Source: Candidatus Bathyarchaeota archaeon (GTDB lineage Archaea > Thermoproteota > Bathyarchaeia > TCS64). Taken from it: DNA of 30,618 nucleotides. The notes under the pieces were generated by a model. The model was not told where the DNA came from, ran no database searches, and saw nothing but the letters and a program-made list of their open reading frames with translations. Both the position numbers and the translations under genes were made by a program. Below, one piece after another: positions 10,974 through 25,419 of the stretch (the first letter of the stretch is position 1; each line of letters opens with the position of its first letter). The DNA is taken from the NCBI GenBank assembly GCA_030670015.1, contig DAOVCM010000001.1, forward strand, positions 1 through 30,618. The letters are read 5' to 3'.

Positions 10974-13900
10974 TCAGGTCCTCATGAAATCTTTAAGGCT
11001 GATCTGTTTCTCCTCAGTTTCCTCGTTAACCCCCACCTCCGGGAAAAGGGAGGCTATCTCATCCTTCACAAGCATGAGCCTGTCGAAATAATAGCTGTCT
11101 AGTCCATATCGCTCCACCATATCCAAAGCTGGTACCAAGTACTTCACTATGCCTCCCTTATAGACGGTCATGGAGATTTTACCCCCGCACCTTATGCACA
11201 CCCCTTTCAGCGGAGGCCGCCTGTACTTGCGGTTGCATTTGACACACCTGAACCTCTGACGTGTGAAAGCCCGCAGGTTCCCGACTATGTCCTTCATGAA
11301 GTGGCTGGTGAGGATTCGCTGTGCGACAATCTTAGCATCCACCGCCCTCAGTTTCTCAGATAGGTCGAGCTGGCTTTCTAGCTTCTCAAGCATGGTCTTG
11401 AGGGTATTATAGGCTCCTAGGTGAGCCCCCTGGTTGATGTCTGAGCACTCATTGGTATACTCAAAGCCCTGGAATTGAGCTTCGGTACCAAGCCTTCTCC
11501 CAATGGTGTCGACGAGGGCTCCGTACACCGCCGGGCTCGCCTCCTCGTTGCAGAGTTTATAAAAGTCTGGGGGGTAACGGGTCATCACGTCCACGTTGTG
11601 GGCCTCTTTGTCCACCTCGCTTGGATGGAGAATCGGTATCACATAGAGAGGGGCATCCATGAGGCCTCCGCTCTTCGTGGGGAGAAACTCCCGGGAGAAA
11701 TTAAGAAGGGGGTCGAGGCCGAGCATGATGGCGTCCTCGTCTCCGTCGCAGTTCCGTCTCTTCGCCGCGTGCCAAAGCGGGTGAGCGTAACAGACCCGGG
11801 TCTTTGTGTATCCTATGACCCTGCCTATGATCGTGGCGGATGTGTGGGGGGCTAGGCCGTGGATGAGTTGGCCTACTACATCGCCTGGTTCACGGATATT
11901 ATAGAATGGTTCCTGTCCGTAGAACTTTGTCAGTAGATCATCGAGGAATTTTGACACCTTTACAAGGTATTCGCCGCAATCCTCCGGGAGTACAACGTCT
12001 TGAACCTTCAGCTCAAGCATCTGCTCAGGTGATTTGAGGAGCGTTCCCTCCTTATCATGAGTGTAACCTAGTTCATACAGCCTCTCAACTGAAACCCCTA
12101 CCTCATGCGGTGTAAAGTGGGTAAGGGGGACATCTGTTATGTCGTACCTCAGGGTACCATCCTTGAACATAGAGAGGTCATACCGAGCCCGTAATAGTCC
12201 CTTCTCAAGGGGTTCTGGCACACGGTTCTTGTTCATGAGGCTCTTGACGCCTTTAAACCTCTTGGGAAGTTGGCCTCCAACCCTTTTTAAGGCGGTCTCT
12301 AGTAGAGCCCTGACGTCGATGTCTGTGGTGTGACTACCCACGGCGTCAACGTTGCAGACGGGGCATCTTTCGTCATCTAGCGGCCTTCCGCATCTAGGGC
12401 ACCTCCACTGGATGAAAGTCTCCTCCCCACAGGTGGAACATTTAACTCCAAAGGAAGGAGAGCCACAGATGGGGCAGTGACGGTTGACTATCTGTACAGA
12501 GGTTTTGCGCCCCCTACCTATCCTAATTATATCTCTTTGAGGTCCTCCCTCATTCCCTACTGGGAACAAGCCGTGCACGTATGGTGACATCTTCCTTTCC
12601 CTAGCTTTCTCCGGCCGTCCCATACGCGCGCCCACGTGCACCGGCGACTTCTCTCTCACGTCTACACCTGAGAGCTTTCGTATAATCGCTATAGGCGTCT
12701 CCGATGCACTCTCTACATACAGATGGTCTAGAGCCAGGCATCTCTCTAAGATGGGAGCGACTTCTTCGAAGTGAATTTTACCGTCTACGACTCTGTGTGG
12801 GACAAGAAGGTATTCCAAGGTTTCCTTGTCCTTCTCATCCAGTTCTACTTCAAACGGCTCTGAGGAGGGCCAGGAAGCCGCGAGGTTTTCCCTAAGTCGG
12901 AGAAGCGCCTCAGTGGACACTGAACTCCAAGGGTATGTGTACCGTGGGTGAAGAGGTACCCCCGCACGGGTTATGTCAAGCGCTTCATCAGGCGTGGGTT
13001 TTATCGATGGGTTTTCCATCAAAACCTTCAATCTCTCAGGAAGCACCCCACTAGTCTCGGACGCTGTATCTACACCCGGCTTCCTGAGAATCCGTTTCAG
13101 GTCATGGTGCCACTGGTTCTCATCGTAGCCAGTCTTCAGGAGATTCTTGTTGTTCTGGAGAAAGTCACCTGCGTTGATGAGAACATCACCCAGCGAAAGT
13201 ATGGAGTCCACGGAATCTAAGAGTCGCTCAGCTTCTTCATCGGTATCCACACGGAGGACCGTTCCATCCCTTAGCTTCACCACCGCCGGTTCTATCGAGT
13301 CCACAGGCGTGACTACTGCCGATTTCCCGGGGAGTTCTATTCTTAATTGGACTCCTGAGGTAAGAAACCTGTTGAGAATACGCATGGTGGCAGGGTGAAC
13401 GCCTACAGCCGCGAGACCTGTGTTCCGAGCCCTGCCATATCTAAGCCTGAAGCCTCCAACCGTGTTTGGGAAGGAGAATACAGGACGGCCTACAATTATC
13501 TCCTCCATGAAGCTGGCTGTTTTCTTGGAGAATTCTGAATTCTTTTGCTCAAGTTTTGAGAGCCATTCCCAGCCATCCAGGCCAAGTTTTTCACATATGC
13601 CGCAGAGCTTCGCCGCACGGCCGACGACGCCATCAACGACCACGATGAGAGCCCCGCCTCTGAGGCGGTTTGTCTCGATCCCAGGTATGTTCCTGTAATT
13701 GGAAACCTCGTAGCGTTCGGTGGATACTCCGGTTGCCTCGACAGGGAGATTCTTAATCGCGATCCTGATGTTCTCGTCTGTGACATGGTACTGGAACCGG
13801 CGGACCTGCCTCTCATAGAGGCGTACCTCCTCCACGAACCTTCCCACGTCGTCATCAGAGGGAAAAAACCTTTCCAGGCCGAGCCTCCGCCGGACAAAAT

Positions 13901-14384
13901 CAGCAACCACCAATGTAAGAGCTTGAGCAGTGCCTCCTGCAGGCCTGATCGGGCCCGCGAAGTAGACGGCAAGGTATTGACTGAGGTCGGTGTTCTTTTT
14001 GATCTTTATCTCAGGGATACCTTGGATCGGGGCGACCGTCACGCCTTCCGTGATGATTGCGAGGGCTGTCCTTATAGCCTGATCAGCTGCAGCTTCCCTC
14101 TCAAGTTTTCCGAATCGGCCGAGGATGATTTCCTCTGCAACCTTGAACGCCAACTCCCTTCGGTCCATTCCCTCCAGCTGTCGCATCCGCTCTCCTATGC
14201 CGGGAGGACCGATCAGTTTCTCAATTCGCTCTGCAATATCATGGGTTTCCTGTGGTTCTGGTATAAGGGTTGGGTCTAACCCCTTCTTACGCGCCTGTTT
14301 CGCGATTTCGTAAAGCTCGTTGACTCCATCCTGTAGATACTTGAAATACACCTGATATTCCGTGGACATATGGAGCTCGTTCAA
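10974..14384 (-). CDS. polC: DNA polymerase II (PolD) large subunit DP2
   Basis: YFAGPIRPAGGTAQAL, GRMGRPEK, RRNCDGDED catalytic motif, two Cys clusters and a C-terminal PIP-like QISLKDFM. 1136 aa with no intein-sized insert. Confidence 0.97.
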   Translation of the reverse strand: MNELHMSTEYQVYFKYLQDGVNELYEIAKQARKKGLDPTLIPEPQETHDIAERIEKLIGPPGIGERMRQLEGMDRRELAFKVAEEIILGRFGKLEREAAADQAIRTALAIITEGVTVAPIQGIPEIKIKKNTDLSQYLAVYFAGPIRPAGGTAQALTLVVADFVRRRLGLERFFPSDDDVGRFVEEVRLYERQVRRFQYHVTDENIRIAIKNLPVEATGVSTERYEVSNYRNIPGIETNRLRGGALIVVVDGVVGRAAKLCGICEKLGLDGWEWLSKLEQKNSEFSKKTASFMEEIIVGRPVFSFPNTVGGFRLRYGRARNTGLAAVGVHPATMRILNRFLTSGVQLRIELPGKSAVVTPVDSIEPAVVKLRDGTVLRVDTDEEAERLLDSVDSILSLGDVLINAGDFLQNNKNLLKTGYDENQWHHDLKRILRKPGVDTASETSGVLPERLKVLMENPSIKPTPDEALDITRAGVPLHPRYTYPWSSVSTEALLRLRENLAASWPSSEPFEVELDEKDKETLEYLLVPHRVVDGKIHFEEVAPILERCLALDHLYVESASETPIAIIRKLSGVDVREKSPVHVGARMGRPEKARERKMSPYVHGLFPVGNEGGPQRDIIRIGRGRKTSVQIVNRHCPICGSPSFGVKCSTCGEETFIQWRCPRCGRPLDDERCPVCNVDAVGSHTTDIDVRALLETALKRVGGQLPKRFKGVKSLMNKNRVPEPLEKGLLRARYDLSMFKDGTLRYDITDVPLTHFTPHEVGVSVERLYELGYTHDKEGTLLKSPEQMLELKVQDVVLPEDCGEYLVKVSKFLDDLLTKFYGQEPFYNIREPGDVVGQLIHGLAPHTSATIIGRVIGYTKTRVCYAHPLWHAAKRRNCDGDEDAIMLGLDPLLNFSREFLPTKSGGLMDAPLYVIPILHPSEVDKEAHNVDVMTRYPPDFYKLCNEEASPAVYGALVDTIGRRLGTEAQFQGFEYTNECSDINQGAHLGAYNTLKTMLEKLESQLDLSEKLRAVDAKIVAQRILTSHFMKDIVGNLRAFTRQRFRCVKCNRKYRRPPLKGVCIRCGGKISMTVYKGGIVKYLVPALDMVERYGLDSYYFDRLMLVKDEIASLFPEVGVNEETEEKQISLKDFMRT

Positions 14385-14397
14385 TACTTTGTCTCCA

Positions 14398-14736
14398 CTA
14401 CTCAGGACTGTGAATCCTGCATAGCATGACTGTGGACCATTTCTCCATTTCTCTGCCAGTCGAGGCCGTGTATGCTTCTGAAGCTATCCTGCTCCTGTGC
14501 GTGACACAGGTATCGCATCTGGGGTGCCGTAGGTCAGAGGGACCGTCGCACTCCCCGCAGTTGAGGAGGAGTGTCTCGCCAAGACTTCTGAGGGTGGTCC
14601 ATGAGTATTCGTTCTCGTCGTAGACGGGCTCAAAGTCAGGCCATATGTCAAATAGCCTCGGTTTCATCAAGGCCTTCTTAAGGGCGTTGAAGAAGCTCTC
14701 GAAGGATGTCACTTTATCACCTTCTAGTTGACTCAA
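14398..14736 (-). CDS. Hypothetical Cys-rich protein (CxxC-x8-CxxC)
   Basis: LNCGECDGPSDLRHPRCDTC. Overlaps the GGGP synthase gene by 20 bp and ends 13 bp before DP2. Confidence 0.7.
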   Translation of the reverse strand: MSQLEGDKVTSFESFFNALKKALMKPRLFDIWPDFEPVYDENEYSWTTLRSLGETLLLNCGECDGPSDLRHPRCDTCVTHRSRIASEAYTASTGREMEKWSTVMLCRIHSPE

Positions 14737-15472
14737 TGTAGGAGACGATCTCGTATATGCTTTCCCTTACACCTTTTGTCTTCTCTACAAGGGTTCCTGT
14801 CACGATAATGTTGGCGCCTGCCTCAACCGCCGCCCTTGCGATTGGACCAGATTTTATACCGCCACCCACAATCAAGGGCACCGATAGGTTGTTTTTAACC
14901 AGTTTAATCATCCCTAAAGGCACTGGGGCTTTGGCACCAGATCCAGCCTCAAGGTAGACGAAGCGCATACCAAGGGTCTCGGCTGCGAGACTGTAGCCAA
15001 GGGCTAGTTCCGGATAATCATAGGGGATGCCCCTCGCTTGGCCTACAAACCCTGCTGCTCCACCATCCCCTATGATTATGTATCCCATAGGAATGGCTTC
15101 AAGTTCATACCGTCGGATAAGATGAGCTGTGAGAGCCTGTACATCTATTAAATAGTAGGTGCTGGACGAGTTGAGAAGAGACATGAACCAGATGGCGTCG
15201 GCATAACGGCTCACCCCGGATATGTTGTTGGGGAAGAGGATAACCGGCACTTTTACCTTTGATTTGATCTCCTTTACAACCTCGTCCAGATCAGAGTTCG
15301 ATGCCATGGTGGACCCACCTACCATAATTGCGGATGTTCCAGCCTCATCTGCCTCAGCGGCGATTTTAATGCACGCCGAAGATTCTGTTTTTTGTGGGTC
15401 AAGGAGGGTCATATGGATCGCTCCCTTATCCCTAATCTTATCGTAGATGTACTGTTCTACAGTTTTACTCAA
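14717..15472 (-). CDS. Geranylgeranylglyceryl phosphate synthase
   Basis: TLLDPQK, AIMVGGST, ILFPNN, FVYLEAGSGA, VGGGIKS and IVTGT; PcrB/GGGPS TIM-barrel family. Confidence 0.92.
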   Translation of the reverse strand: MSKTVEQYIYDKIRDKGAIHMTLLDPQKTESSACIKIAAEADEAGTSAIMVGGSTMASNSDLDEVVKEIKSKVKVPVILFPNNISGVSRYADAIWFMSLLNSSSTYYLIDVQALTAHLIRRYELEAIPMGYIIIGDGGAAGFVGQARGIPYDYPELALGYSLAAETLGMRFVYLEAGSGAKAPVPLGMIKLVKNNLSVPLIVGGGIKSGPIARAAVEAGANIIVTGTLVEKTKGVRESIYEIVSYIESTRR

Positions 15473-15722
15473 CGGCTACTTCCTCCTGAAGTTTCCCTTC
15501 ATAGTAGCTGTCAGTGAAGAGACAGTAAGCATCAACCTCGCTCATCTGGGGCTTAGCAGGGAATATTCCGTTCAGACTGCAATTACTACAGATCACAACA
15601 GCCCTGTTTCTCTTCTTGTCTATTGTTCCTTTGACAGTGTTCTTACCACATCTTGGACACAGAAACAGCTCTGGCAGCTTCCTTCTTCTGACCTTTACAA
15701 CTTTTCTCCGCCTACGCCCCAT
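15465..15722 (-). CDS. elf1: Transcription elongation factor Elf1
   Basis: MGRRRRK basic N-terminus, FLCPRCG...ICSNC zinc ribbon and VDAYCLFTD. Confidence 0.9.
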   Translation of the reverse strand: MGRRRRKVVKVRRRKLPELFLCPRCGKNTVKGTIDKKRNRAVVICSNCSLNGIFPAKPQMSEVDAYCLFTDSYYEGKLQEEVAVE

Positions 15723-15754
15723 TTTCCTAGCCCCTCCTCTTCAAAATCAAATCA

Positions 15755-16576
15755 TCAAGTAACCGAACTAAGTCTTAAGATTAGTGGAAGCTGCCTTTTA
15801 TGTTTGTTAGCTCTGACACGCCCCAATATTCTCTGAACTAAAAGAGGCGAAACATCTAAACTCTCCGCTATTTTGTTCTCAGGTAATCCCTTCTCATATC
15901 CATATAGGATCAAATCTATGATGTCGTACGAGCTCCCCAGCTCCTCCTCGTCGGATTGCCCAATCCATAATCCTGCCGTCGGCGTTTTTTTGATGATTTT
16001 TTCAGGAATATTCAACTGCCTCGCAAGCTGTCGTACCTGGTTTTTATACAAGTCTACCATGGGCAAAAGGTCGACTGCGCCATCGCCATATTTAGTGAAA
16101 TATCCTGTTAACCACTCTGTTTTATTGGTACTGCCGATAACCATTCTATTCATAATGTTAGCATAGTGATAAGCAACGATCATTCTAGTCCTCGCTTTCA
16201 TGTTACCAGAAGAAACCATATCGTTGGGGTTATAGAGCGGTAGAACTCTTTTCATCAACTGAACCAAGGACGTGATATCAATGATATCACATGTTACATC
16301 TAACATATCTGTCAGCTGCATCACGTCTGTGATGTCACTCTCAGGTGTGATGTCACGCTCTGGCATGGTTATGGTTCTTACTTTTTTTGATTTCAACGCC
16401 TTGACTGTAAGAGCGAGAACAACGGCTGAATCTACTCCCCCGCTCACAGATACAATAGCGCCGTTAAGACCTGAGATCTCTACTTGTGACCGAATGAAAA
16501 AGGATATTTCCTCTATTACTTTAGGAGCGTCGAGTGTTAAAAACTCTGTAGATAACATACTTATTTTCAATAACAT
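15755..16576 (-). CDS. nadE: NH3-dependent NAD+ synthetase
   Basis: SGGVDSAV, GNMKARTRM, GSTNKTE, GYFTKYGDG, DLYKNQV, PTAGLW and HKR. Start at ATG 16576 or 16558; the ORF track extends to 16648. Confidence 0.93.
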   Translation of the reverse strand: MLLKISMLSTEFLTLDAPKVIEEISFFIRSQVEISGLNGAIVSVSGGVDSAVVLALTVKALKSKKVRTITMPERDITPESDITDVMQLTDMLDVTCDIIDITSLVQLMKRVLPLYNPNDMVSSGNMKARTRMIVAYHYANIMNRMVIGSTNKTEWLTGYFTKYGDGAVDLLPMVDLYKNQVRQLARQLNIPEKIIKKTPTAGLWIGQSDEEELGSSYDIIDLILYGYEKGLPENKIAESLDVSPLLVQRILGRVRANKHKRQLPLILRLSSVT

Positions 16577-16781
16577 TCTGTAGTTTAAGCGTTTTTCTTC
16601 ATGAAATATTACATATATCATTAAATATTTAATCAATAATACATACAAGTTTTAATAAATATGAATAGATACACTATGAATGTAAATGAAGTTGTATCAA
16701 AAAAGTTATCTCACACCGTATACAATTTTGTCTACGGTAACATAACGTGTTCAATAAAATGATATTCAGGAAAGTGAGTCT

Positions 16782-17243
16782 GTGTTGAATGAAAATAATC
16801 TACAAAATCTAGTTAACCGGTCATTTAAAGACCCAATTGCAGCAATATTACTTAAGAACAGTAATTTTACGACCGTTCAATATGAATGTCTTATTATTAA
16901 CTATATAATAGATAATTACTCTGATAAAGAGATTACTTATAATAAAAAGGCGTTATATAGGTCTAAAAAAGTAAGTAGGGGTTCATTTAGCCGTACTTTA
17001 TCTCAGGCAAAGAGGAATATAATTTCATCTATATACACAATATTACTTTTAACGTATATAGGAATCTTCGATACTGTCCCCTTTGATGAATATAAAAATC
17101 TAGCTGAAAAACTGAGTGAATATCTTGATCTGATTCAAAGTTCAGATACAACGCAAGCAAGACATTTTTTACGGCGTATAGAAAAGGAATTGATAGAAGG
17201 AATCCGTATTCTTGCAGAGACTCGAAGCTTAAAAAACGTGTGA
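16782..17243 (+). CDS. Conserved archaeal hypothetical protein with HTH-like segment
   Basis: KVSRGSFSRTLSQAKRNIISSIYTILLL resembles an HTH recognition helix followed by a long helix. Its stop codon lies inside the first TGTGATATCACA box. Confidence 0.65.
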   Translation: MLNENNLQNLVNRSFKDPIAAILLKNSNFTTVQYECLIINYIIDNYSDKEITYNKKALYRSKKVSRGSFSRTLSQAKRNIISSIYTILLLTYIGIFDTVPFDEYKNLAEKLSEYLDLIQSSDTTQARHFLRRIEKELIEGIRILAETRSLKNV

Positions 17244-17260
17244 TATCACATAAAATCACA
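17239..17260. repeat. Palindrome box 1 (TGTGATATCACA plus phased half-site TAAAATCACA)
   Basis: Perfect 12-bp palindrome at 17239-17250. The 22-mer is a 21/22 inverted copy of 17780-17801. Confidence 0.9.
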
Positions 17261-17779
17261 AAATAAAGAAGAAGTTTTTAGGTTAAGAGGTAACATTTCG
17301 GTAGGAGAGTATCTTTCATTTATACAAACTTTCATTAATTTGTAAAATACAAAATACGATCACAGTTATTAGTGCATCCATATCAGTAAAACGGGATTTA
17401 AAAATTAACATAGTATCGTAATTAATTTTCGAAGTTTCTCTATTATTTTTCTAATTTCTAATAACGCTTTGTTTCAAGCTAAAAATCGATATAGTTCATA
17501 TAACATACTATATTTATATTTCATCATATAATAGGATATATTTATAGTTTTAAAGATAAAATATTAATTATTATGGGATAAAAGATAAAGAAAATAAAAT
17601 TCTCAATTAATAATCATCGTCAAAAAATACATAATCACCTATCCTCTCAGACCAACTCTTAACAAAGTTGATCAATGTTAAAAAACATAAATATTTTATC
17701 TTACAAAATGTTGTAACCAAATAATACTTTAGTAGATTTATAAGAAATAATAATTATCCTTTTTCAGAGTCATTATTGA

Positions 17780-17801
17780 TGTGATTATATGTGATATCAC
17801 A
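17780..17801. repeat. Palindrome box 2 (TGTGATTATA plus TGTGATATCACA)
   Basis: Perfect 12-bp palindrome at 17790-17801, with a half-site 10 bp upstream. Confidence 0.9.
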
Positions 17802-18089
17802 ACCTTAAATGTCTGAGATTTTTCAATCAGTGTGGTTATAGGTATTCATACTAAATAATCAAGATACAAAAATTATCCAAGATTCTAAATAAACGCAAAT
17901 GGCTCTTCTCTTAAGAGATAGTAATAATCGAAAATAGGGTATATTTATTTAAAATATCCTTTTATTTTCCTTATTATATATTATCTAAAACATACCTATA
18001 CATATCTAGTCAAGGATTTTTGGTTCTCCCTTAGAGAGCATATGAACCGAATGGTTGATTGTGGAATAGCTCCTTAGATATTCTTTTCA

Positions 18090-18172
18090 TGTGATTTTCC
18101 CCGTTCATCTGTGATATCACGTGGGTTAACAGAGGTCACAGCTTATCACATTGGAGTTACATGTGATATTAC
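18090..18172. repeat. Palindrome box cluster 3
   Basis: TGTGATTTT (18090), TGTGATATCAC (18110-18120), TCACA ending at 18140 and 18150, TTACA ending at 18161, and TGTGATATTAC (18162-18172). Confidence 0.85.
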
Positions 18173-18535
18173 GGATCCTAAACCTGCTTGAATAAGGGGA
18201 TATTTTATAATGCGAGGTCTAAAATGTCGTTGAAGTATTGAATCGTAAAATAGTCGAATTTTAATCATACATTTGTTATTAATAACTCAGTTATTCACCA
18301 AGTATATTTTTCTAAAAAAAACGATTCATACACAAATAACACAATGTTATATAACTTAATTAAAGATCATAGAAGAGAATAATTGTAAAAACCATGAAAG
18401 TCATGCTCTAAGGACTAGCTAAACCCAAATAAAAAAAGGTGCAAAGTCTATCTTGGGAACTCTCAAAAAAGGAAACAATAAAATAGTTAAAATAAAATAA
18501 TATTTAGTAGGAACATTAGTATATGGTGAGGGGTT

Positions 18536-19204
18536 TTGGAACTTTTCTTCGCCACGATGTCACTATTCGTAGTTACGATCGTAGGTTCTTTCATCTATTA
18601 CAAACGGATCAGAAAGGCTCAAATAGAGTATGAGGGCTCGAAGGACCTCGTTAGGAGTTTAACATTCGGTTTTACCCAGCAGCTAAGTAAATTTTCAAGA
18701 ACTATTGGGAGCCTTAGACAGGAAGTGTTAGGTGCCCATAGTATCGCATCTGAAGCTCTGAAGGCCAGTCGTGATGCAAAGGAGGTCATGAGGGAGGGAA
18801 GGGAGGAGACGGAGAAAATATCAAAGCGTATGGATGATACGGAGAAGGTATTTGATTCAATGAGGCAGGAGATGCAAGAGCTAGTAAGTAGAAAAGTTGT
18901 TCATCCTGTAAAAACAGAGGTAGAAGCGCCTATACCATTGAAACAGGAGGCAGTTCTAGACATGCTGACCCAGACGGAACTTGTCGTTCTTACATCTATA
19001 GAGGAGATGGTTGAGGGGTCGGGCCCGGAAATCAGGAAGCGTATTGGAAAAACGAGGGAGCACACGGCAAGATTACTGAAAAAATTATTCGAGAAGGGTT
19101 ACATAGATCGTAACACCAGTGGTATGCCTTACAGATATTACATAAGGAAGGAGATCAAGGAACTTATTCAGCAGCAGAAGGAAGCTATGAGGGTCGCCTT
19201 CTAA
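18536..19204 (+). CDS. Membrane-anchored coiled-coil protein with C-terminal winged helix-turn-helix
   Basis: N-terminal TM (LFFATMSLFVVTIVGSFIYY) followed by KRIRK, a heptad-rich helical middle, and LTQTELVVL...IGKTREHTARLLKKLFEKGYIDR wHTH. GGTGAGG SD-like sequence upstream. Confidence 0.75.
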   Translation: MELFFATMSLFVVTIVGSFIYYKRIRKAQIEYEGSKDLVRSLTFGFTQQLSKFSRTIGSLRQEVLGAHSIASEALKASRDAKEVMREGREETEKISKRMDDTEKVFDSMRQEMQELVSRKVVHPVKTEVEAPIPLKQEAVLDMLTQTELVVLTSIEEMVEGSGPEIRKRIGKTREHTARLLKKLFEKGYIDRNTSGMPYRYYIRKEIKELIQQQKEAMRVAF

Positions 19205-19269
19205 CCTAGGAACCACCTGTGAACAAGTATTTATACATCTAAAGGATAGAAACGGAGCGGAGAGTCTGT

Positions 19270-19617
19270 ATGAAATCAACGATAGTAGAGTATGCTCCTA
19301 AATTTGAGCCAGTGAAAGGTGCCATGATGACACTTATAGGTGATGGAGAAAAAATGACCTTTGTTAGGATCTACATCCAGCCGGGCACCGTTTTTCCGGA
19401 TCACAGTCATCCTAACGAGCAGATAGGAACCTGCGTTGAGGGTAAGGGCATCCTTACATCCGGAGGTGAAGATCTCAAGGTAGAGCCTGGAGTCACCTGG
19501 TCCATCCCCGGTGGTGAGGTTCATAAGTTCGAGGCCGTGGGAGACCAACCGGTTGTCATCTATGAAGTCTGGAGTCCTCCCAGAGAGGATTACAGGTCAA
19601 TGGCAAAAACAGTATAA
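19270..19617 (+). CDS. Cupin domain protein
   Basis: HSHPNEQ...EG and IPGGEVH cupin metal motifs. Confidence 0.85.
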   Translation: MKSTIVEYAPKFEPVKGAMMTLIGDGEKMTFVRIYIQPGTVFPDHSHPNEQIGTCVEGKGILTSGGEDLKVEPGVTWSIPGGEVHKFEAVGDQPVVIYEVWSPPREDYRSMAKTV

Positions 19618-19655
19618 GTCGTCAATCATAACACTCACTACCGGAGCCTTTCACC

Positions 19656-21155
19656 GTGTCGGTGGAGTTGAGAGAAGCCCTTGGTAAAATAATCGAATCC
19701 GGCTACCAGTTAAGCGCCGATGCATTCGATTATCTGAAAACCTTGGACAGGGATATCCTTCAAGACACCGTCAGACGGGTTCTCCTTTTCGCCAACTCCT
19801 CCGAAAAGGATGTTGTCATCCTCGATAGAATATTCTTTCAAAAAGTGATAGAAAGAAGTCGTGAAAAGTCAAAGGTCAAGGGATTCATAACTGGGAAATC
19901 CCTTGGTAGGCCTCTCGCCAGCGAGTATGAGGGGCAGATTCAGGTTCTAAACAATCAGCCTCCTGAGCCTTCCGGTGACCTGAAAGGATTCATCGACTAC
20001 TTTCGAAGTCGCTTCAAAAAGATCGAGGGTATATTTCGTAAAAGAATAGATATGAAAGATGTTGTCACTATTGGTATAGCCCAAAAAATGCCGTTAAAGT
20101 CAAAGATGAAGGTGATCGGTATGGTGACTACGAAGAGGGCGTCGGGGCCTCGCCTTTTCATCGAATTAGAGGATCCCGAGGACTCCATCACGGTGATGAC
20201 GTCGGACAGCGAGACAGTGAGAAAGGGACTAACCATCCTTCAAGATCAGGTTATCTGCGTGGACGCAGTCAAGTTCAAGCATGACCTCCTAATTGCGAAC
20301 GACTTTATCTGGCCGGACATACCCAGCCACTCACCGCGGAGATCTGAGATTCCGATGTGCGTCGCCTTTTTAGCTGATCTCCACATAGGCAGCAAACTTT
20401 TCCAGAAGAAAATTTTCAACCGTTTCATCAGGTGGATGAACTTGGAAGTCGGAAGACCAGAGTCAAGAAAAATGGCGGCTCGGGTAAAGTACGTTATCAT
20501 CACCGGTGACCTTGTGGATGGTATAGGCGTCTACCCTAACCACATGGATGAACTGGAGATCAAGGATATTAGAGAACAATACGAGACGGCGGCTCTCATA
20601 CTATCCGAGCTCCCAAACTACGTTGAGATCATTATCATACCTGGCAACCATGACCCCGTTCGAAAGAGTCTCCCCCAGCCACCTATCTCCAAGCAGTACG
20701 CTGAAAGAATACATAACGATGATAGAATTCATTTATTAGGGAACCCCAGTCATCTTCTCATCAATGGGGTAGAAGTTTACATTAGCCATGGGAAGGCTTT
20801 GGAAGAAGTTCTCTCACGTATCCCTGGAATGAACTTCCATAACCCTGAGGTCGGTATAGAACTTTTACTTCGCTGCAGGCACGTGGCGCCAACTTATGGT
20901 ACGTCAATTCCCATTGCCCCGGAGAAGGTTGACAGACTAGTTATTGAATCCACTCCAGATATCATACAAATGGGGCATATCCACGTCTACGGTTATAGGA
21001 GATACAAAGGAACTACCATTATCGCATCTGGCTCATGGCAAGAGCAGACATCTTTCCAGAAGAGGGTGAACTTATCCCCCACAATCGGGATAGCGCCTAT
21101 AGTTGACCTCCAGACACACAATATTGCACCTCTCGACTTTACCAAATCTTACTAA
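19656..21155 (+). CDS. polB: DNA polymerase II (PolD) small subunit DP1, proofreading exonuclease
   Basis: OB fold (IGMVTTKR...IELED), then ADLHIGS, GDLVDG, PGNHD, HG, RHVAPTYG and GHIH phosphoesterase motifs. Confidence 0.95.
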   Translation: MSVELREALGKIIESGYQLSADAFDYLKTLDRDILQDTVRRVLLFANSSEKDVVILDRIFFQKVIERSREKSKVKGFITGKSLGRPLASEYEGQIQVLNNQPPEPSGDLKGFIDYFRSRFKKIEGIFRKRIDMKDVVTIGIAQKMPLKSKMKVIGMVTTKRASGPRLFIELEDPEDSITVMTSDSETVRKGLTILQDQVICVDAVKFKHDLLIANDFIWPDIPSHSPRRSEIPMCVAFLADLHIGSKLFQKKIFNRFIRWMNLEVGRPESRKMAARVKYVIITGDLVDGIGVYPNHMDELEIKDIREQYETAALILSELPNYVEIIIIPGNHDPVRKSLPQPPISKQYAERIHNDDRIHLLGNPSHLLINGVEVYISHGKALEEVLSRIPGMNFHNPEVGIELLLRCRHVAPTYGTSIPIAPEKVDRLVIESTPDIIQMGHIHVYGYRRYKGTTIIASGSWQEQTSFQKRVNLSPTIGIAPIVDLQTHNIAPLDFTKSY

Positions 21156-21717
21156 GTCCTCGGGCAATGATTCCCGCAGTTCTAACAGGTTCGGGAATCC
21201 TACTTACAATTGCTGAAAGCTGTAATATGTGTTCACCCCATTTATTTGAGCATCCTATTACCTCAAAGTAAATGGGAGGTTCCTTGGGATGAGTTCTTGT
21301 GCTGTACACGGGCCCCAATTTTTTTATTATATCCCATCGCCAATGCCAGTCATCAAAATGCTTTTTGAGGGCCAACAACATTTTTTCGTTATCGGGTCGA
21401 GTTCCTGAATAAATGATAACAGGTATACCTGTCTCATTGAGTATTTTATTGGGATCTATGATATTGAATCCTGCAAATGTGATGCCTCCCAATATGACTG
21501 CATTTACCTCAATATTCTTAATGATGCTCAAGAGTTTCTGTGTGGCGTCTGCTCCGTCAATCTGGATTTTCGCAAGCCTTACGTCTATGATTTTGTCTAA
21601 TTCAGTTTCTACCCCACAGATAATAGTGAACGATGGAGTTGCACTAGAGAACTCTTTGAAGCTTCCGTCCTCTACGCCGAAGAGATGAATCATGTTTTTT
21701 AAGTCTTTATTAGTCAA
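21139..21717 (-). CDS. DUF99-family protein (endonuclease V-like fold)
   Basis: GVEDGSF, QIDGADAT, ILGGITFAGFNIID and IPEPVRTAGIIARG. Confidence 0.85.
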   Translation of the reverse strand: MTNKDLKNMIHLFGVEDGSFKEFSSATPSFTIICGVETELDKIIDVRLAKIQIDGADATQKLLSIIKNIEVNAVILGGITFAGFNIIDPNKILNETGIPVIIYSGTRPDNEKMLLALKKHFDDWHWRWDIIKKLGPVYSTRTHPKEPPIYFEVIGCSNKWGEHILQLSAIVSRIPEPVRTAGIIARGLSKIW

Positions 21718-22145
21718 TATTTCTCAATTTTACCGTAAATTTCAGACCTCAAAAGAAATTGTGGATATATGTTTTTGGGGACCTCAACGATTCCGTCGTG
21801 TATTATAATTTTATTTATACTACTCAGAGATTCTTTGTTGAGGTCTTTTTCGAAGGTTAGTCGACCTGAGGTCTCTATGTTAAATTTCCCAACTTCTTTT
21901 TTTATGTTTATTATATCTTTATTAGAGAGAGATATCTCCCCATTATTCTTCAGTGTGAACATGTTTCCATCGTTTCCACTTGTGCCATTATTTCCACCTT
22001 TACCGTTAGTTCCTCCATTTAGGAACTCTCTCAAAGCGTAATTGACTACTTCTGCAACACGTTTACCATCCTTCTTTGCCATTGAAAAAACTTCGTGGTA
22101 TAGATCTGTGTCGAGTCCTCGAATGGCAACGGTTTTGCGGGGCAC
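21714..22145 (-). CDS. Ribbon-helix-helix-like DNA-binding protein with C-terminal domain
   Basis: KTVAIRGLDTDLYHEVFSMAKKDGKRVAEVVNYALREFL fits a beta-alpha-alpha RHH pattern, followed by a G/N-rich linker. Start moved to GTG 22145; the ORF track gives 22193. Confidence 0.65.
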   Translation of the reverse strand: MPRKTVAIRGLDTDLYHEVFSMAKKDGKRVAEVVNYALREFLNGGTNGKGGNNGTSGNDGNMFTLKNNGEISLSNKDIINIKKEVGKFNIETSGRLTFEKDLNKESLSSINKIIIHDGIVEVPKNIYPQFLLRSEIYGKIEKY

Positions 22146-22171
22146 TTTAACACGTCCACATGATTGAATGT

Positions 22172-22197
22172 TTACTTGTTTACATGTTAACAAGTAA
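22172..22197. promoter_or_regulatory. 26-bp near-perfect palindrome (putative operator)
   Basis: TTACTTGTTTACATGTTAACAAGTAA: 12 of 13 positions pair. Adjacent to the self-complementary TATA-like CTTATAAG at 22199-22206. Confidence 0.65.
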
Positions 22198-22262
22198 TCT
22201 TATAAGAATATCGCATGGGATGATATTACACCGCATTCAACACAGTTTTTCCGGAGGGAGGG

Positions 22263-22925
22263 ATGGGGTTAGATCATATGTTAGAGGTAGATAGGACCAT
22301 CGGTGATAAAAAACACACGGTAAATTTCTCGCAACATGAAAATAACCTAAGTAAGTATGTAGAAATATACCGTAGGTTATTATTATTAAATGAGAAAAAT
22401 AACCTAGCAACGACCCTCAAAAACATACAGGAGTTACTATCTTTCACTGAAAATATTTTCTCTTCTTCCTCTATTGCTGAGACATTTCTATATTTCTGTC
22501 TTCACGGTGCTTCAACTGCTTGGGTTCTACAGAACGAGTTGAATATGCCAGAAGCTACTGCTTATAGATGTTTAAAACGGCTTAGATCTCTTGGAATAAT
22601 TATACCTGCTATTAAAATTTCTAAGATTAAGAATTCGAAAGGTGGACCAAGACCAACGATTTGGGCTCTAAAGGAAACGCCTACGGAAGAGATTGCTAGA
22701 GCACTTAGACTTCATTATCAGATGCTCAGCCCAAAATTCCGTGTTGCAGAGAAAGTTGCACAGACCATTCTTGACGAGTATATTACTAGGAGAAAAATCT
22801 ATGAGATCTCTTATAGAGAGATCGTGTTGCATGTTAAGGAGCTTAAAATGCCCTTTAGAGCACCTGACATAGCTGATCTTGCAGCTGATTATCTTCACGA
22901 GAAAGGCATAAAGGTGTGGAGATAA
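22263..22925 (+). CDS. Hypothetical winged-helix DNA-binding protein
   Basis: TFLYFCLHGASTAWVLQNELNMPEATAYRCLKRLRSLGII is a wHTH with a wing ending GGPRPTIWAL. The C-terminal helical domain may be a second WH. Confidence 0.65.
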   Translation: MGLDHMLEVDRTIGDKKHTVNFSQHENNLSKYVEIYRRLLLLNEKNNLATTLKNIQELLSFTENIFSSSSIAETFLYFCLHGASTAWVLQNELNMPEATAYRCLKRLRSLGIIIPAIKISKIKNSKGGPRPTIWALKETPTEEIARALRLHYQMLSPKFRVAEKVAQTILDEYITRRKIYEISYREIVLHVKELKMPFRAPDIADLAADYLHEKGIKVWR

Positions 22926-23006
22926 AATATCTGTCTTTTTTGGTGATTTACAATCCTTATTTAATTGATATAAAATAACAATTATTAAAATATTTTTTAA
23001 AATAAT

Positions 23007-23870
23007 TTATCTTATCTTTTTCATTTCTCTTCGCGCATCAATATGAGCACTTCTCAAGGGTTCTGGAAGATTCCCCTTTAACATCATTTCATTAACAATT
23101 TTTACACTTGTTTCTAGAGAAATTCGATGGCCAACAGATACATACAATGGAGAACGAGAATCAGTCCTTAATTCTGTACACGCGCTGGCTCCATCTCGTA
23201 ATAGCGATTTACAATCATAATGCTTTTCCCCGTTTGAACTTACCAATCGTCTTCTAGCTATACCAATGGTTGGTATATCTAACTCTAAGCCTACACATGT
23301 TGCGAGACCACAACATCGTGGATGCGCTATACCATGCCCATTAACAAATAGCAGATCAAACTCTGATACAAGCTTGGATGTTCTTTCTATTGATGGAGCC
23401 TCCCTGAACATGAAGTATCCTGAGATGTATGGGAAATGTACAGTAGATACTGTTGATGCCTTTTCTAATATTTTGAAACTTCTTTCCATGATGACGCAGA
23501 CAGCATATACCTCATAACCTCTATATGCTGCGTCAACCCCTGCAAATCTATTTAATTCTTTAAAATCATCCTCTTGAATTACTCGTTTTGACATACTCAG
23601 CTGAAGCTCCGCGAGCCGCTTAAGAGGCATATCCGAAGAGAAATCCCTGAAGATTTTTGTTTCCGGAACAAGGTTTTCAACTATTTTATGTCTATTTTTT
23701 CGTAGTTCGTTTCTCATAATCCGAGATATTGAAGGCGCTGCATCCGAGTCACCGAGGGAGGATGCTAGGTGATATGGCGTTGAGACCCTTCCTTCCGGTA
23801 TCTGGTCTAATAGGCTGTTTATTGCTGTGTATAGGTCTACCTCGGGAACCCTCATTTTTATGAGAAACAT
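23007..23870 (-). CDS. nfi: Endonuclease V with N-terminal AGT/MGMT-like DNA-binding domain
   Basis: EndoV motifs GVDAAY, PYISGYFMFREAP, NGHGIAHPR...GLA, PTIGIA, YVSVGH and PEPLRSAH. The N-terminal LLDQIPEGRVSTPYHLASSLG resembles the AGT HTH. Confidence 0.8.
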   Translation of the reverse strand: MFLIKMRVPEVDLYTAINSLLDQIPEGRVSTPYHLASSLGDSDAAPSISRIMRNELRKNRHKIVENLVPETKIFRDFSSDMPLKRLAELQLSMSKRVIQEDDFKELNRFAGVDAAYRGYEVYAVCVIMERSFKILEKASTVSTVHFPYISGYFMFREAPSIERTSKLVSEFDLLFVNGHGIAHPRCCGLATCVGLELDIPTIGIARRRLVSSNGEKHYDCKSLLRDGASACTELRTDSRSPLYVSVGHRISLETSVKIVNEMMLKGNLPEPLRSAHIDARREMKKIR

Positions 23871-23964
23871 TGGTGCTTATTGTGTTTATGTTATGATCTA
23901 TGATGTGAAATTGGTTTTTTGGTGTTATACTTGGATTATAAAAGGGTTGGTGGATTGATTAGTT

Positions 23965-25419
23965 TCAACTTTTTTCTATCTTCCAGATTGTGCCTTCAGA
24001 TGTGTCGGAGAGAATCACTCCTACCTTGGAAAGTTCCTCTCTTATTTGGTCGGAGAGAGTGAAGTTTCTATCCGTTCTAAGTCGCTCTCTAACTTTTGCG
24101 ATGATGTTTATCAGGTCTTGTGTTAACTCGTCAACTCCTGTACTAGTTGCCTCAAAAAGGCCTAGAACGTTCAGTAGACTGTGATAGATAACTGATGCCT
24201 TCATGAGGACTCCCTTGTTGGGGCCCTTTGCTATGTAATCATTTATGGTTTTGGAGAGGGCGTGAAGGGCGTTGAAGGCACTGTGAGTGTCGATGTCATC
24301 GTCCATGGCGTCTTCAAATGCTTTTTTGTGTGTGGATATTTCATGCAGAAATGTTTCTTCAATGTCGCCATAGTCAAGCTTTTCGTATTCGTCTTTACAT
24401 GCGTTTTCGATGAGGTTTAGTGTGTTCCTTAGTTTTTGCAACGAGTTCTCGGCGCTTTCCATTGCGGCCTCTGTATAGTCTACTTGCTTCCGGTAATGGG
24501 TGGAGAGGTAGAAGTATCTGAATACGTCTGGGGAGTATTTTGTTAGTACTTCGTCGAAGGAAACGTAGTTACCGAGGCTCTTGCTCATCTTTCTTCCGTT
24601 TATCTTGAGGAACCCTCCGTGCATCCAGAAGCGAACGAATTTTGTTCCTGTGTATGCTTCGGACTGAGCTATTTCGTTCTCATGATGGGGGAAGATGAGG
24701 TCCTCGCCTCCTGCGTGGATGTCTAGGGTGTCACCTAGATATTTACGTGTCATTACGCTGCACTCAATGTGCCATCCCGGTCTCCCTCTGCCCCAAGGTG
24801 ATTCATAGTAGATGCCGCGTTCTATTTCGTCTGGTGTCGACAGCTTCCAGAGAGCGAAGTCGTTGGCTGTCTCCTTCTCGTATTCGTCTACTGTCATCCG
24901 TTCGGTCTTCTTCACAGCTGAGAGGTCGACACCGCTGAGTTTTCCGTATTCTTGGAATTTGTCTATGTCAAAGTAGACGCCATCCCCAGATACGTAGGCG
25001 TACTCCTTTTTGATGAGGCCTTGTACGAACTCTATCATATCCTGAACATGTTCGGTAGCCCGGGGGTATACTGTAGCTCGCTTCATATTGAACCAGTCGA
25101 GGCCTCTGAGGAAGGACTTGACGTATCTTTCGGTGAACTCTTTTAGGGACACACCTTCTTTGCCCGAGTTGCGTATAGTCTTGTCGTCGATGTCGGTTAT
25201 GTTCATCACGTAGAACACGTCATACCCGCGATACTCCAGCCATCGTAGGACGATGTCACCGAGCAGGAAGCTACGAAAGTTGCCTATGTGGGGGTCACTG
25301 TAGACGGTGGGACCACAGACATACATCCTCACCTTCCCCTGCTCAATAGGTTCAAACGGCCGTTTACGCCGTGTGAAGGTGTCGTAGAACCGAAGCCCCA
25401 CTGGGTTTTTCATGGCCAT
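23965..25419 (-). CDS. cysS: Cysteinyl-tRNA synthetase
   Basis: [14 protein letters not shown] (HIGH), [25 protein letters not shown] and KMSKSLGN. Confidence 0.97.

Follow-up and report, generated by a model that had tools for sequence, protein, structure and literature searches.

In archaea, replication origins are defined by an AT-rich duplex unwinding element (DUE), by origin recognition boxes (ORBs) and by an adjacent initiator gene (PMC4010727, PMC5333045). We took TCCAGTGGAAA plus a G-string as the canonical ORB; the core dyad tested in our searches resembles TTCCA-N-TGGAAA. Plasmid iterons consist of direct repeats, each about 17-22 bp long, to which a Rep initiator encoded alongside binds. 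The omega protein of pSM19035, a ParB of the ribbon-helix-helix kind, recognizes the heptad 5'-WATCACW-3', whose copies are arranged as direct or inverted repeats (PMC9499535), and CopY/BlaI/MecI-type dimers with winged helices bind the compact palindrome TACANNTGTA (PMC7253601). Here, we analyze an array of TGTGAT palindromes and half-sites in a DNA stretch of 30,618 nucleotides from a Candidatus Bathyarchaeota archaeon. This stretch, referred to as the window over its full length, is contig C91 of a 1.34-Mb metagenome-assembled genome that is 78% complete and has a mean GC content of 50%. As judged from sequence comparisons, the array is best explained as a mark of the ancestral replication-origin neighbourhood of Bathyarchaeia and other PolD-bearing Thermoproteota. 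Tentatively, with a probability of roughly 40%, we read it as an origin-proximal docking array for the winged helix-turn-helix (wHTH) protein encoded at 18536-19204, which would serve to anchor or organize the origin region.

The initial annotation of the window had claimed four boxes, and all of them were recovered: TGTGATATCACA is present as a perfect 12-mer at 17239 and 17790, TGTGATATCACG lies at 18110 and TGTGATATTACG at 18162. The array proved larger than first described, with about eight composite sites over about 1.9 kb (16272-18173), including four more sites within nadE (16272-16357). When up to two mismatches were allowed, the window yielded 9 matches compared with 1.27 expected, and none of 100 shuffles reached this number; chance is ruled out as an explanation of the boxes. 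The perfect 12-mer TGTGATATCACA has two copies in the whole assembly. A genome-wide count, which had been suggested as a check, showed that TGTGATRTCAC is not a common sequence: there are five copies in the assembly, every one of them at this single locus (16328-18121). The half-site 5-mers GTGAT/ATCAC reach a density of 9.3 per kb in the region 16250-18180 as opposed to 1.88 per kb genome-wide, and the eight segments of 1.93 kb that are richest in them are all located at the array. The literature searched contained neither the 12-mer nor a matching regulon, be it metabolic or other, and no description of an oriC from Bathyarchaeia was found in it.

Sites 1 and 2 form an inverted pair of 22 nt (17239-17260 and 17780-17801) with 95% complementarity and three half-sites each, and the 500 bp with the lowest GC content of the entire assembly (21.8%, 4.8 standard deviations under the mean) reside between them, just as had been proposed. 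The spacer between the two sites (17261-17779) contains no open reading frame (ORF) of at least 50 aa, has no match in Rfam (E up to 1) and shows no similarity to relatives. The whole 1.3-kb gap from 17244 to 18535 is likewise free of ORFs of at least 50 aa and has a GC content of 22-31%. Extra half-sites are present as well, namely ATCACA at 17255, TGTGAT at 17780 and 18090, GTCACA at 18135 and ATCACA at 18145, with spacings of 10, 10, 20, 19 and 29 bp. The phasing of 10 bp that had been described along with them holds for part of the class: the third half-site is offset by 10 bp in most of 21 order-level loci and by 7-9 bp in other Bathyarchaeia families, such that helical phasing is local to the order and not universal. 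On a larger scale, a broad domain of low GC content (15500-24000, 22-48% compared with 50% for the genome) extends beyond the non-coding gap and takes in the whole array as well as adjacent genes for replication and repair.

Table 1 Sites of the TGTGAT array and features surrounding it in the window
Feature	Position	Strand	Remarks
N1, overlapping degenerate palindromes CGTGATATCAAT + AATGATATCACA	16272..16291		inside nadE coding sequence
N2, ATCAC, then TGTGATGTCACT + TGTGATGTCACG 18 bp apart	16320..16357		inside nadE, encoding RDITPESDIT
Site 1, TGTGATATCACA-N4-ATCACA	17239..17260		three half-sites; overlaps last codon and TGA stop of small ORF
AT-rich spacer	17261..17779		between mirror-image sites; contains lowest-GC 500 bp of assembly
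Site 2, TGTGAT-N4-TGTGATATCACA	17780..17801		mirror image of site 1
Site 3a, TGTGAT-N14-TGTGATATCACG	18090..18121
Site 3b, GTCACA-N4-ATCACA-N11-TGTGATATTACG	18135..18173
Palindrome GTATACA-N4-TGTCTAC	16718..16735		promoter region of small ORF; outside TGTGAT array
RPA			further upstream in window
DP2, large subunit of PolD	10974-14384	minus
GGGP synthase (GGGPS)	14717-15472	minus
NadE	15755 to ~16560	minus
Small ORF	16782-17243	plus	153 aa, no Pfam family
Membrane wHTH protein	18536-19204	plus	222 aa
Cupin			between membrane wHTH gene and DP1
DP1, small subunit of PolD	19656-21155
Endo-dU-like protein			between DP1 and RHH gene
Ribbon-helix-helix (RHH) protein	21714-22193	minus
Second wHTH protein	22263-22925
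EndoV			after wHTH gene of 22263-22925

The motif is deeply conserved. TGTGATRTCAC was detected in 25 of 31 relatives belonging to the same family, order and class, mostly as one cluster per genome, while the reversed pattern used as a control gave practically no matches (~0). The possibility raised by the initial annotation that the motif might not be conserved in relatives is therefore laid to rest at all three taxonomic levels. Throughout the class, the matches cluster beside the small ORF and the gene for the membrane wHTH protein. The order of the genes is constant in the 21 order-level loci and runs from those for DP2, GGGPS, NadE (not always present) and the small ORF across an interval, which is either non-coding or filled by hypF in the opposite orientation, to those for the membrane wHTH protein, a cupin (again not always present), DP1, Endo-dU, the RHH protein and the second wHTH protein. 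When positions are measured from the stop codon of the small ORF, the sites also keep their places. The site 1 palindrome is situated at this stop codon or within about 10 bp of it in 21 of 21 order-level loci, and it is followed closely downstream by at least one further half-site of the TCACA type in the order-level relatives and, with offsets of 7-9 bp, in 14 of 20 class-level lineages. An upstream site or tandem pair lies at -834 to -910 in most order-level loci and falls into nadE wherever that gene was detected; a pair of the N2 type at -880 to -910 characterizes most relatives from the family. The equivalent of site 2 is found at +576 to +619 inside hypF in most loci that carry this gene and at +201 to +352 in those that do not, with site 2 of the window at +550. 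A third site, often a pair about 21 bp apart, occupies about +880 to +915 within hypF (the counterpart of site 3a about +880 to +895) or +531 to +667 where hypF is missing, and the corresponding elements of the window are found at +870 and +922.

The gene hypF is absent from the locus in the window. A decayed hypF pseudogene was considered as the source of the 1.3-kb gap and rejected, as tblastn with the HypF sequence of a relative gave no match in the window and as the DNA between the sites cannot be aligned to that of relatives. The spacing of the sites resembles that in hypF-bearing loci (551, 871 and 923 bp versus 581, 890 and 915 bp), which is suggestive only.

Sites are embedded in three different coding contexts, i.e., inside nadE, on the stop codon of the small ORF and inside hypF. 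The motif shapes the last codon (xTG) and the TGA stop of the small ORF, the last codons of hypF and the sequence RDITPESDIT in NadE, and the sites within hypF are translated as I-(R/C)-D-I-T-K-N-H and Y-M-T-S...E-I-S-Q. Nine non-redundant hypF genes were aligned by codons (786 codons, about 60% nucleotide identity); mean identity at third positions amounts to 0.55, and the four best windows of four codons, with values of 0.83-1.00, all coincide with motif sites, the equivalent of site 2 being the highest peak of synonymous conservation in the gene. Loss of hypF has not removed the sites, and the DNA between them has no detectable similarity to that of relatives (z ~0, compared with z = 176 for the hypF-to-hypF control). 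Together, the peaks at synonymous positions, the persistence without hypF and the unalignable DNA between the sites identify the motif as a cis element and not as a by-product of coding. Coding constraint as the cause of conservation was rejected, since synonymous positions peak at the motifs and since the sites survive in non-coding contexts. These comparisons show that the sites of the array are under selection at the DNA level.

In many Bathyarchaeia families other than that of the window, an Orc1 with a score of 409-431 bits is encoded 2-5 kb downstream of the small ORF and is preceded by textbook ORBs, as exemplified by G080 with TTTTCCAGTGGAAATAAGGGGG, an inverted copy and a third copy. 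In 12 of 20 class-level lineages, ORBs with G-strings follow the small-ORF stop at a distance of 0.5-4.4 kb. The general syntenic layout consists of the genes for DP2, GGGPS and the small ORF, the TGTGAT array, the gene for the membrane wHTH protein, ORBs and orc1. Under the published definition of an archaeal origin, a locus with this layout is the oriC neighbourhood. The array itself is a second element, separate from the ORBs and 1-4 kb away from them. The earlier statement that the motif does not represent the canonical ORB was confirmed: the canonical core has no match between 16.5 and 18.6 kb, its total of 11 matches in the window equals the expectation of 11.08, and related lineages harbour both canonical ORBs and the array.

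The situation differs in the order of the window (families f1, f2 and f4), where ORBs are absent from the locus. The window contains no orc1 gene, and the only Orc1 match of its genome is situated on contig C36 (457-1551, a 275-bit match to TIGR02928) with neither ORBs or ORB-like repeats nor an extended AT-rich tract beside it. A cluster of canonical ORBs was not found anywhere in this genome, and five genomes of the family contain ORBs at background level only. Orc1 is limited to the ~270-bit paralogue in the window's own genome and in four of the five family genomes searched (G005, G007, G009 and G011); in the closed genome G005, orc1 is 345 kb away from the array. The exception is G010, which has Orc1-1 together with an ORB on a separate 3.7-kb contig. 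It is possible, judging from these genomes, that the canonical origin was lost or relocated in the family of the window. Pairs of near-canonical ORB cores, which might be relocated origins, were noticed in G009 (C23:25825/26218) and G011 (C26:50265/50277).

Base composition changes along with the array. The inverted boxes flank AT-rich DNA in the window and in relatives without hypF, while the interval between sites 1 and 2 is coding and depleted in GC at third codon positions (GC3) in hypF-bearing relatives. In genomes of family f1, hypF has a GC3 of 0.4-0.8 outside the array and of 0.24-0.66 within it, and no such drop is seen in G030 (f8), which keeps ORBs. In the loci L029-L032, L038, L039 and L043, the drop is sharp and affects the 3' third of hypF (in L030 from 0.76 to 0.39), such that a compositional boundary runs through a conserved gene; it is weak in f4.

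Four DNA-binding proteins are encoded near the array, and among them the protein encoded at 18536-19204 is the candidate binder for which sequence data make the best case. It consists of an N-terminal transmembrane (TM) helix, a long helical or coiled-coil middle part and a C-terminal winged helix, the membrane anchor and the coiled coil being predicted. The winged helix resembles MarR, TrmB and Penicillinase_R, the last of which is among its weak Pfam matches. Throughout the class, its recognition helix, (K/R/L)(T/S)REHTARL(L/M)KKL(Y/F), shows little variation, in parallel with the conservation of the TCACA half-site. Of 121 class genomes, 77 were found to carry the gene. The search did not recover it from families f6, f15, f17 and f19, where the small ORF is present without a TGTGAT site and where either ORBs follow directly after the small ORF or matches to the pattern are scattered on other contigs. 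Among 20 class-level lineages, the presence of a site at the small-ORF stop and of the wHTH gene in the genome coincide (both, site only, gene only, neither: 13/1/1/5; Fisher p = 0.002, phylogeny ignored). The TGTGAT sites track the membrane wHTH protein and not the small ORF. The phyletic pattern also has a bearing on the description of the array as iteron-like, i.e., as a set of initiator sites, which is not supported: the pattern points to the membrane wHTH protein and not to an initiator of the Orc1 or Rep type. What does fit is the idea of a platform for a dimeric protein, as palindromes and extra half-sites are under selection at the DNA level.

Compared with the closest described systems, the array combines features of several. 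With ORBs and mini-ORBs, the targets of Orc1/Cdc6 (PMC4010727, PMC5333045), it has in common the inverted repeats (around AT-rich DNA in the window and in relatives without hypF), the adjoining replication genes, the occurrence at a single locus and the origin neighbourhood. However, its sequence is unrelated and lacks the TCCA-N-TGGAAA dyad and the G-string, its unit, a compact palindrome without mismatches, would suit a dimer, and it not only coexists with true ORBs but also persists where ORBs and Orc1-1 are gone. The resemblance to parS/ParB and to the omega system with its WATCACW repeats (PMC9499535) lies in the few copies at one place, the palindromic or oriented repeats that are tolerated in coding sequence, the gene for a DNA-binding protein beside the sites and a half-site reminiscent of the omega heptad. 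Few copies in one neighbourhood near the origin, as is typical of centromere-like elements, are indeed what we found, with a single cluster per genome and with ORBs and orc1 nearby in relatives. On the other hand, there is no linked ATPase of the ParA type, the candidate binder is a membrane-anchored winged-helix protein instead of ParB or an RHH protein, and the geometry is different, with half-sites 6 bp apart within the palindrome and then 7-10 bp to the next. Proteins of the CopY/BlaI/MecI type (PMC7253601) provide the model of a homodimer whose winged helices bind the adjoining half-sites of a compact palindrome, and the weak Penicillinase_R match is in line with this, but these proteins are soluble repressors, carry the winged helix at the N-terminus and act at promoters, whereas here it is C-terminal, preceded by a transmembrane helix and a coiled coil, and most sites are outside promoters. 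Plasmid iterons resemble the array as multiple protein-binding repeats (binding being predicted here) that adjoin AT-rich DNA; the units of the array, however, are palindromes with extra half-sites, and these units are 50-900 bp apart over about 1.9 kb of chromosome; the window contains no rep gene. Nor do the sites have the distribution of operators in a regulon, because all of them are found at one locus and because those of hypF-bearing relatives are in coding DNA or at a convergent gene junction.

Our preferred reading, the docking array, can be put as follows. The wHTH protein would occupy both the compact palindromes and the extra half-sites as a dimer, a multi-site nucleoprotein complex would be assembled on the array, and this complex would tether or organize origin-proximal DNA at the membrane. 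Its role would be centromere-like or origin-anchoring and not the transcriptional control of a regulon. About eight sites at one origin-proximal place, fixed whatever their coding or promoter context, next to the gene for a candidate binder that is predicted to be membrane-anchored and probably dimeric, fit such a tethering complex. Several points weigh against it. The co-occurrence of sites and wHTH gene rests on few independent evolutionary events (at least 2-4), as the small-ORF tree, which is poorly resolved, requires about four label changes, at least two of which are forced. There are exceptions in both directions, G094 with sites and no wHTH gene detected and G020 with the gene and no sites, and G114 is a further one outside the set of 20 lineages. 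The distance of 6 bp between half-site centres is tight for a classical MarR dimer. No gene for an ATPase of the ParA/SegA type is present in the window, and the four ParA/MinD-like matches are on other contigs. The layout without hypF is likely ancestral and puts the array upstream of the wHTH gene, such that autoregulation explains part of the pattern. Finally, the membrane anchor and the coiled coil are predictions from the sequence.

The role in autoregulation just mentioned can be extended to a competing explanation, in which the wHTH protein is a membrane-linked transcription factor for itself, the small ORF, hypF and nadE, the sites are ordinary local operators and the chromosome is not involved. 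MarR- and BlaI-type proteins, to which the Pfam matches point, are usually local repressors, and the sites lie 200-1300 bp upstream of the wHTH gene in most class-level lineages and in family members without hypF. We nevertheless consider this explanation unlikely. Genomes that bear hypF have no full site upstream of the wHTH gene but at most a lone GTGAT at the start codon, and their sites are at least 1.5 kb away in coding DNA and at a convergent gene junction. In addition, up to eight sites over about 1.9 kb with positions fixed within genes would be unusual for an autoregulator.

The sites could also be bound by the product of the small ORF itself, either for autoregulation or for control of convergent transcription. 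In favour of this, all 21 order-level loci and 14 of 20 class-level lineages have a palindrome at or within about 10 bp of its stop codon, and sites are present on both sides of the gene. The protein belongs to a hypothetical family that extends throughout the Bathyarchaeota and was found in 93 of 121 class genomes, and a Pfam search of the family yielded nothing. Its structural model is all-helical, with a predicted local distance difference test (pLDDT) score of 78.6; the fold search returned no match at E <=0.001 and a weak local likeness to sigma region 4, and the protein is thus possibly a helix-turn-helix (HTH) protein resembling that region. The small ORF, however, is kept without TGTGAT sites in f6, f15, f17 and f19. 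Moreover, it has a universally conserved upstream palindrome of its own with a different sequence: ATACA-N4/5-TGTAT is located 60-80 bp upstream of the gene in the order-level loci examined and in 20 of 20 class-level lineages, and it is kept even in lineages devoid of any TGTGAT site. The version in the window, GTATACA-N4-TGTCTAC, is likely the operator or a promoter element of the small ORF. Binding of the array by this protein accordingly has a low probability.

A third possibility concerns the window's family, in which the array might act as the replicator after loss of Orc1-1 and ORBs. Sites 1 and 2 would then flank the unwinding region and recruit an initiator, either the remaining Orc1 paralogue or the membrane wHTH or small HTH protein acting like WhiP. 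The two sites are indeed mirror images on either side of the assembly's most AT-rich DNA, and the locus is a point from which genes diverge, set among replication genes. Canonical ORBs are missing from the own genome and from the locus in the order and are at background level in the five family genomes, the sole Orc1 is the ~270-bit paralogue whose neighbourhood is free of ORBs and extended AT-rich tracts, and the GC3 of hypF drops inside the array in hypF-bearing family members but not in G030. We also determined GC and AT skew for the closed family genome G005, sampling 20 kb in every 40 kb. The cumulative skew turns near the locus, but its range is not significant (p = 0.18 and 0.09) and the turn is a maximum instead of a minimum. 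In other families, a complete ORB/orc1 origin is found 1-4 kb from the array, which argues that its ancestral role is not ORB-like. Besides, the interval between sites 1 and 2 is coding in hypF-bearing relatives, G010 from the same family keeps Orc1-1 with an ORB elsewhere, and with 78% completeness of the own assembly an ORB origin could be among the unassembled parts. We rate this explanation as improbable. A natural origin replacement at this very place, in which the Orc1-1/ORB origin was lost and the TGTGAT array with its AT-rich core took over as replicator, is quite doubtful; its initiator would be a protein other than Orc1-1, e.g., the membrane wHTH protein, the small HTH protein or the remaining Orc1 paralogue.

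That the RHH protein encoded at 21714-22193 uses the ATCACA half-sites much as omega uses its heptads is very improbable, for although the heptad matches TATCACA and AATCACA, some lineages have a half-site offset of 7 bp and the protein has a weak Omega_Repress match in Pfam (E = 0.003), its gene is unlinked to the array outside the order of the window, its sequence matches none of the solved omega structures in the PDB and its own divergent promoter contains a different conserved repeat. The lead was therefore dropped, the likeness of the heptad being real. In this promoter (window 22168-22215), GTTTAC-N2-GTTTAC-N2-GTTAAC is followed by the TATA-like CTTATAAG, and this operator-like, strongly conserved element recurs between the RHH gene and the wHTH gene at 22263 in almost every one of the 19 order-level loci inspected. 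Because the TTG listed as start of the RHH ORF falls into the element, the true start is probably near 22151 and the N-terminus 'MLTCKQVNI' is an artefact. In this protein (window 21717-22151), a linker rich in G and N connects the RHH domain to a C-terminal alpha/beta domain (about 85 aa) that is highly conserved and modelled with confidence (pLDDT about 90).

The reach of the TGTGAT array and its proposed binder is not limited to Bathyarchaeia. Homologues of the membrane wHTH protein, mostly aligned over the C-terminal domain, are present in other families of the phylum, and the neighbourhood recurs in whole or in part in eight sampled loci from outside Bathyarchaeia. In its full form, it comprises the genes for DP2 and GGGPS, the small ORF with ATACA..TGTAT, GTGAT/ATCAC sites, the gene for the TM-wHTH protein, ORB-like repeats, orc1 and the gene for DP1. 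In locus L131, the matched region of the small ORF is followed, about 80 bp further on, by TGTGATATCACA without a mismatch. Two closed genomes of 1.6 Mb, which stem from ammonia oxidizers because archaeal AmoA is present, share the palindrome upstream of the small ORF; in both, the small-ORF stop lies inside TGTGATAT, many GTGAT half-sites precede the TM-wHTH gene and the recognition helix reads REHTARLLKKL or REHTSRLMKKL. A GC-rich transposase-like ORF flanked by repeated ccgcccgtggtatg was noted in locus L128 (4480-5450, from the ammonia oxidizer G160), where it is inserted between the genes for GGGPS and the small ORF and adjoins the origin module.

To our knowledge, the positioning and segregation of archaeal chromosomes is poorly understood beyond SegAB of Sulfolobus. 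The locus described here offers a cis element and a candidate membrane-anchored binder beside oriC, across Bathyarchaeia and into other PolD-bearing Thermoproteota including ammonia oxidizers. Three protein-coding genes at the locus clearly exemplify how a code for DNA binding can be overprinted on coding sequence, and with the family of the window a group has come to light that appears to have lost the canonical Orc1-1/ORB origin. Among ammonia oxidizers there are cultivable species whose single origin has been mapped (PMC4010727), and these make the hypothesis of an origin-proximal docking array directly testable.

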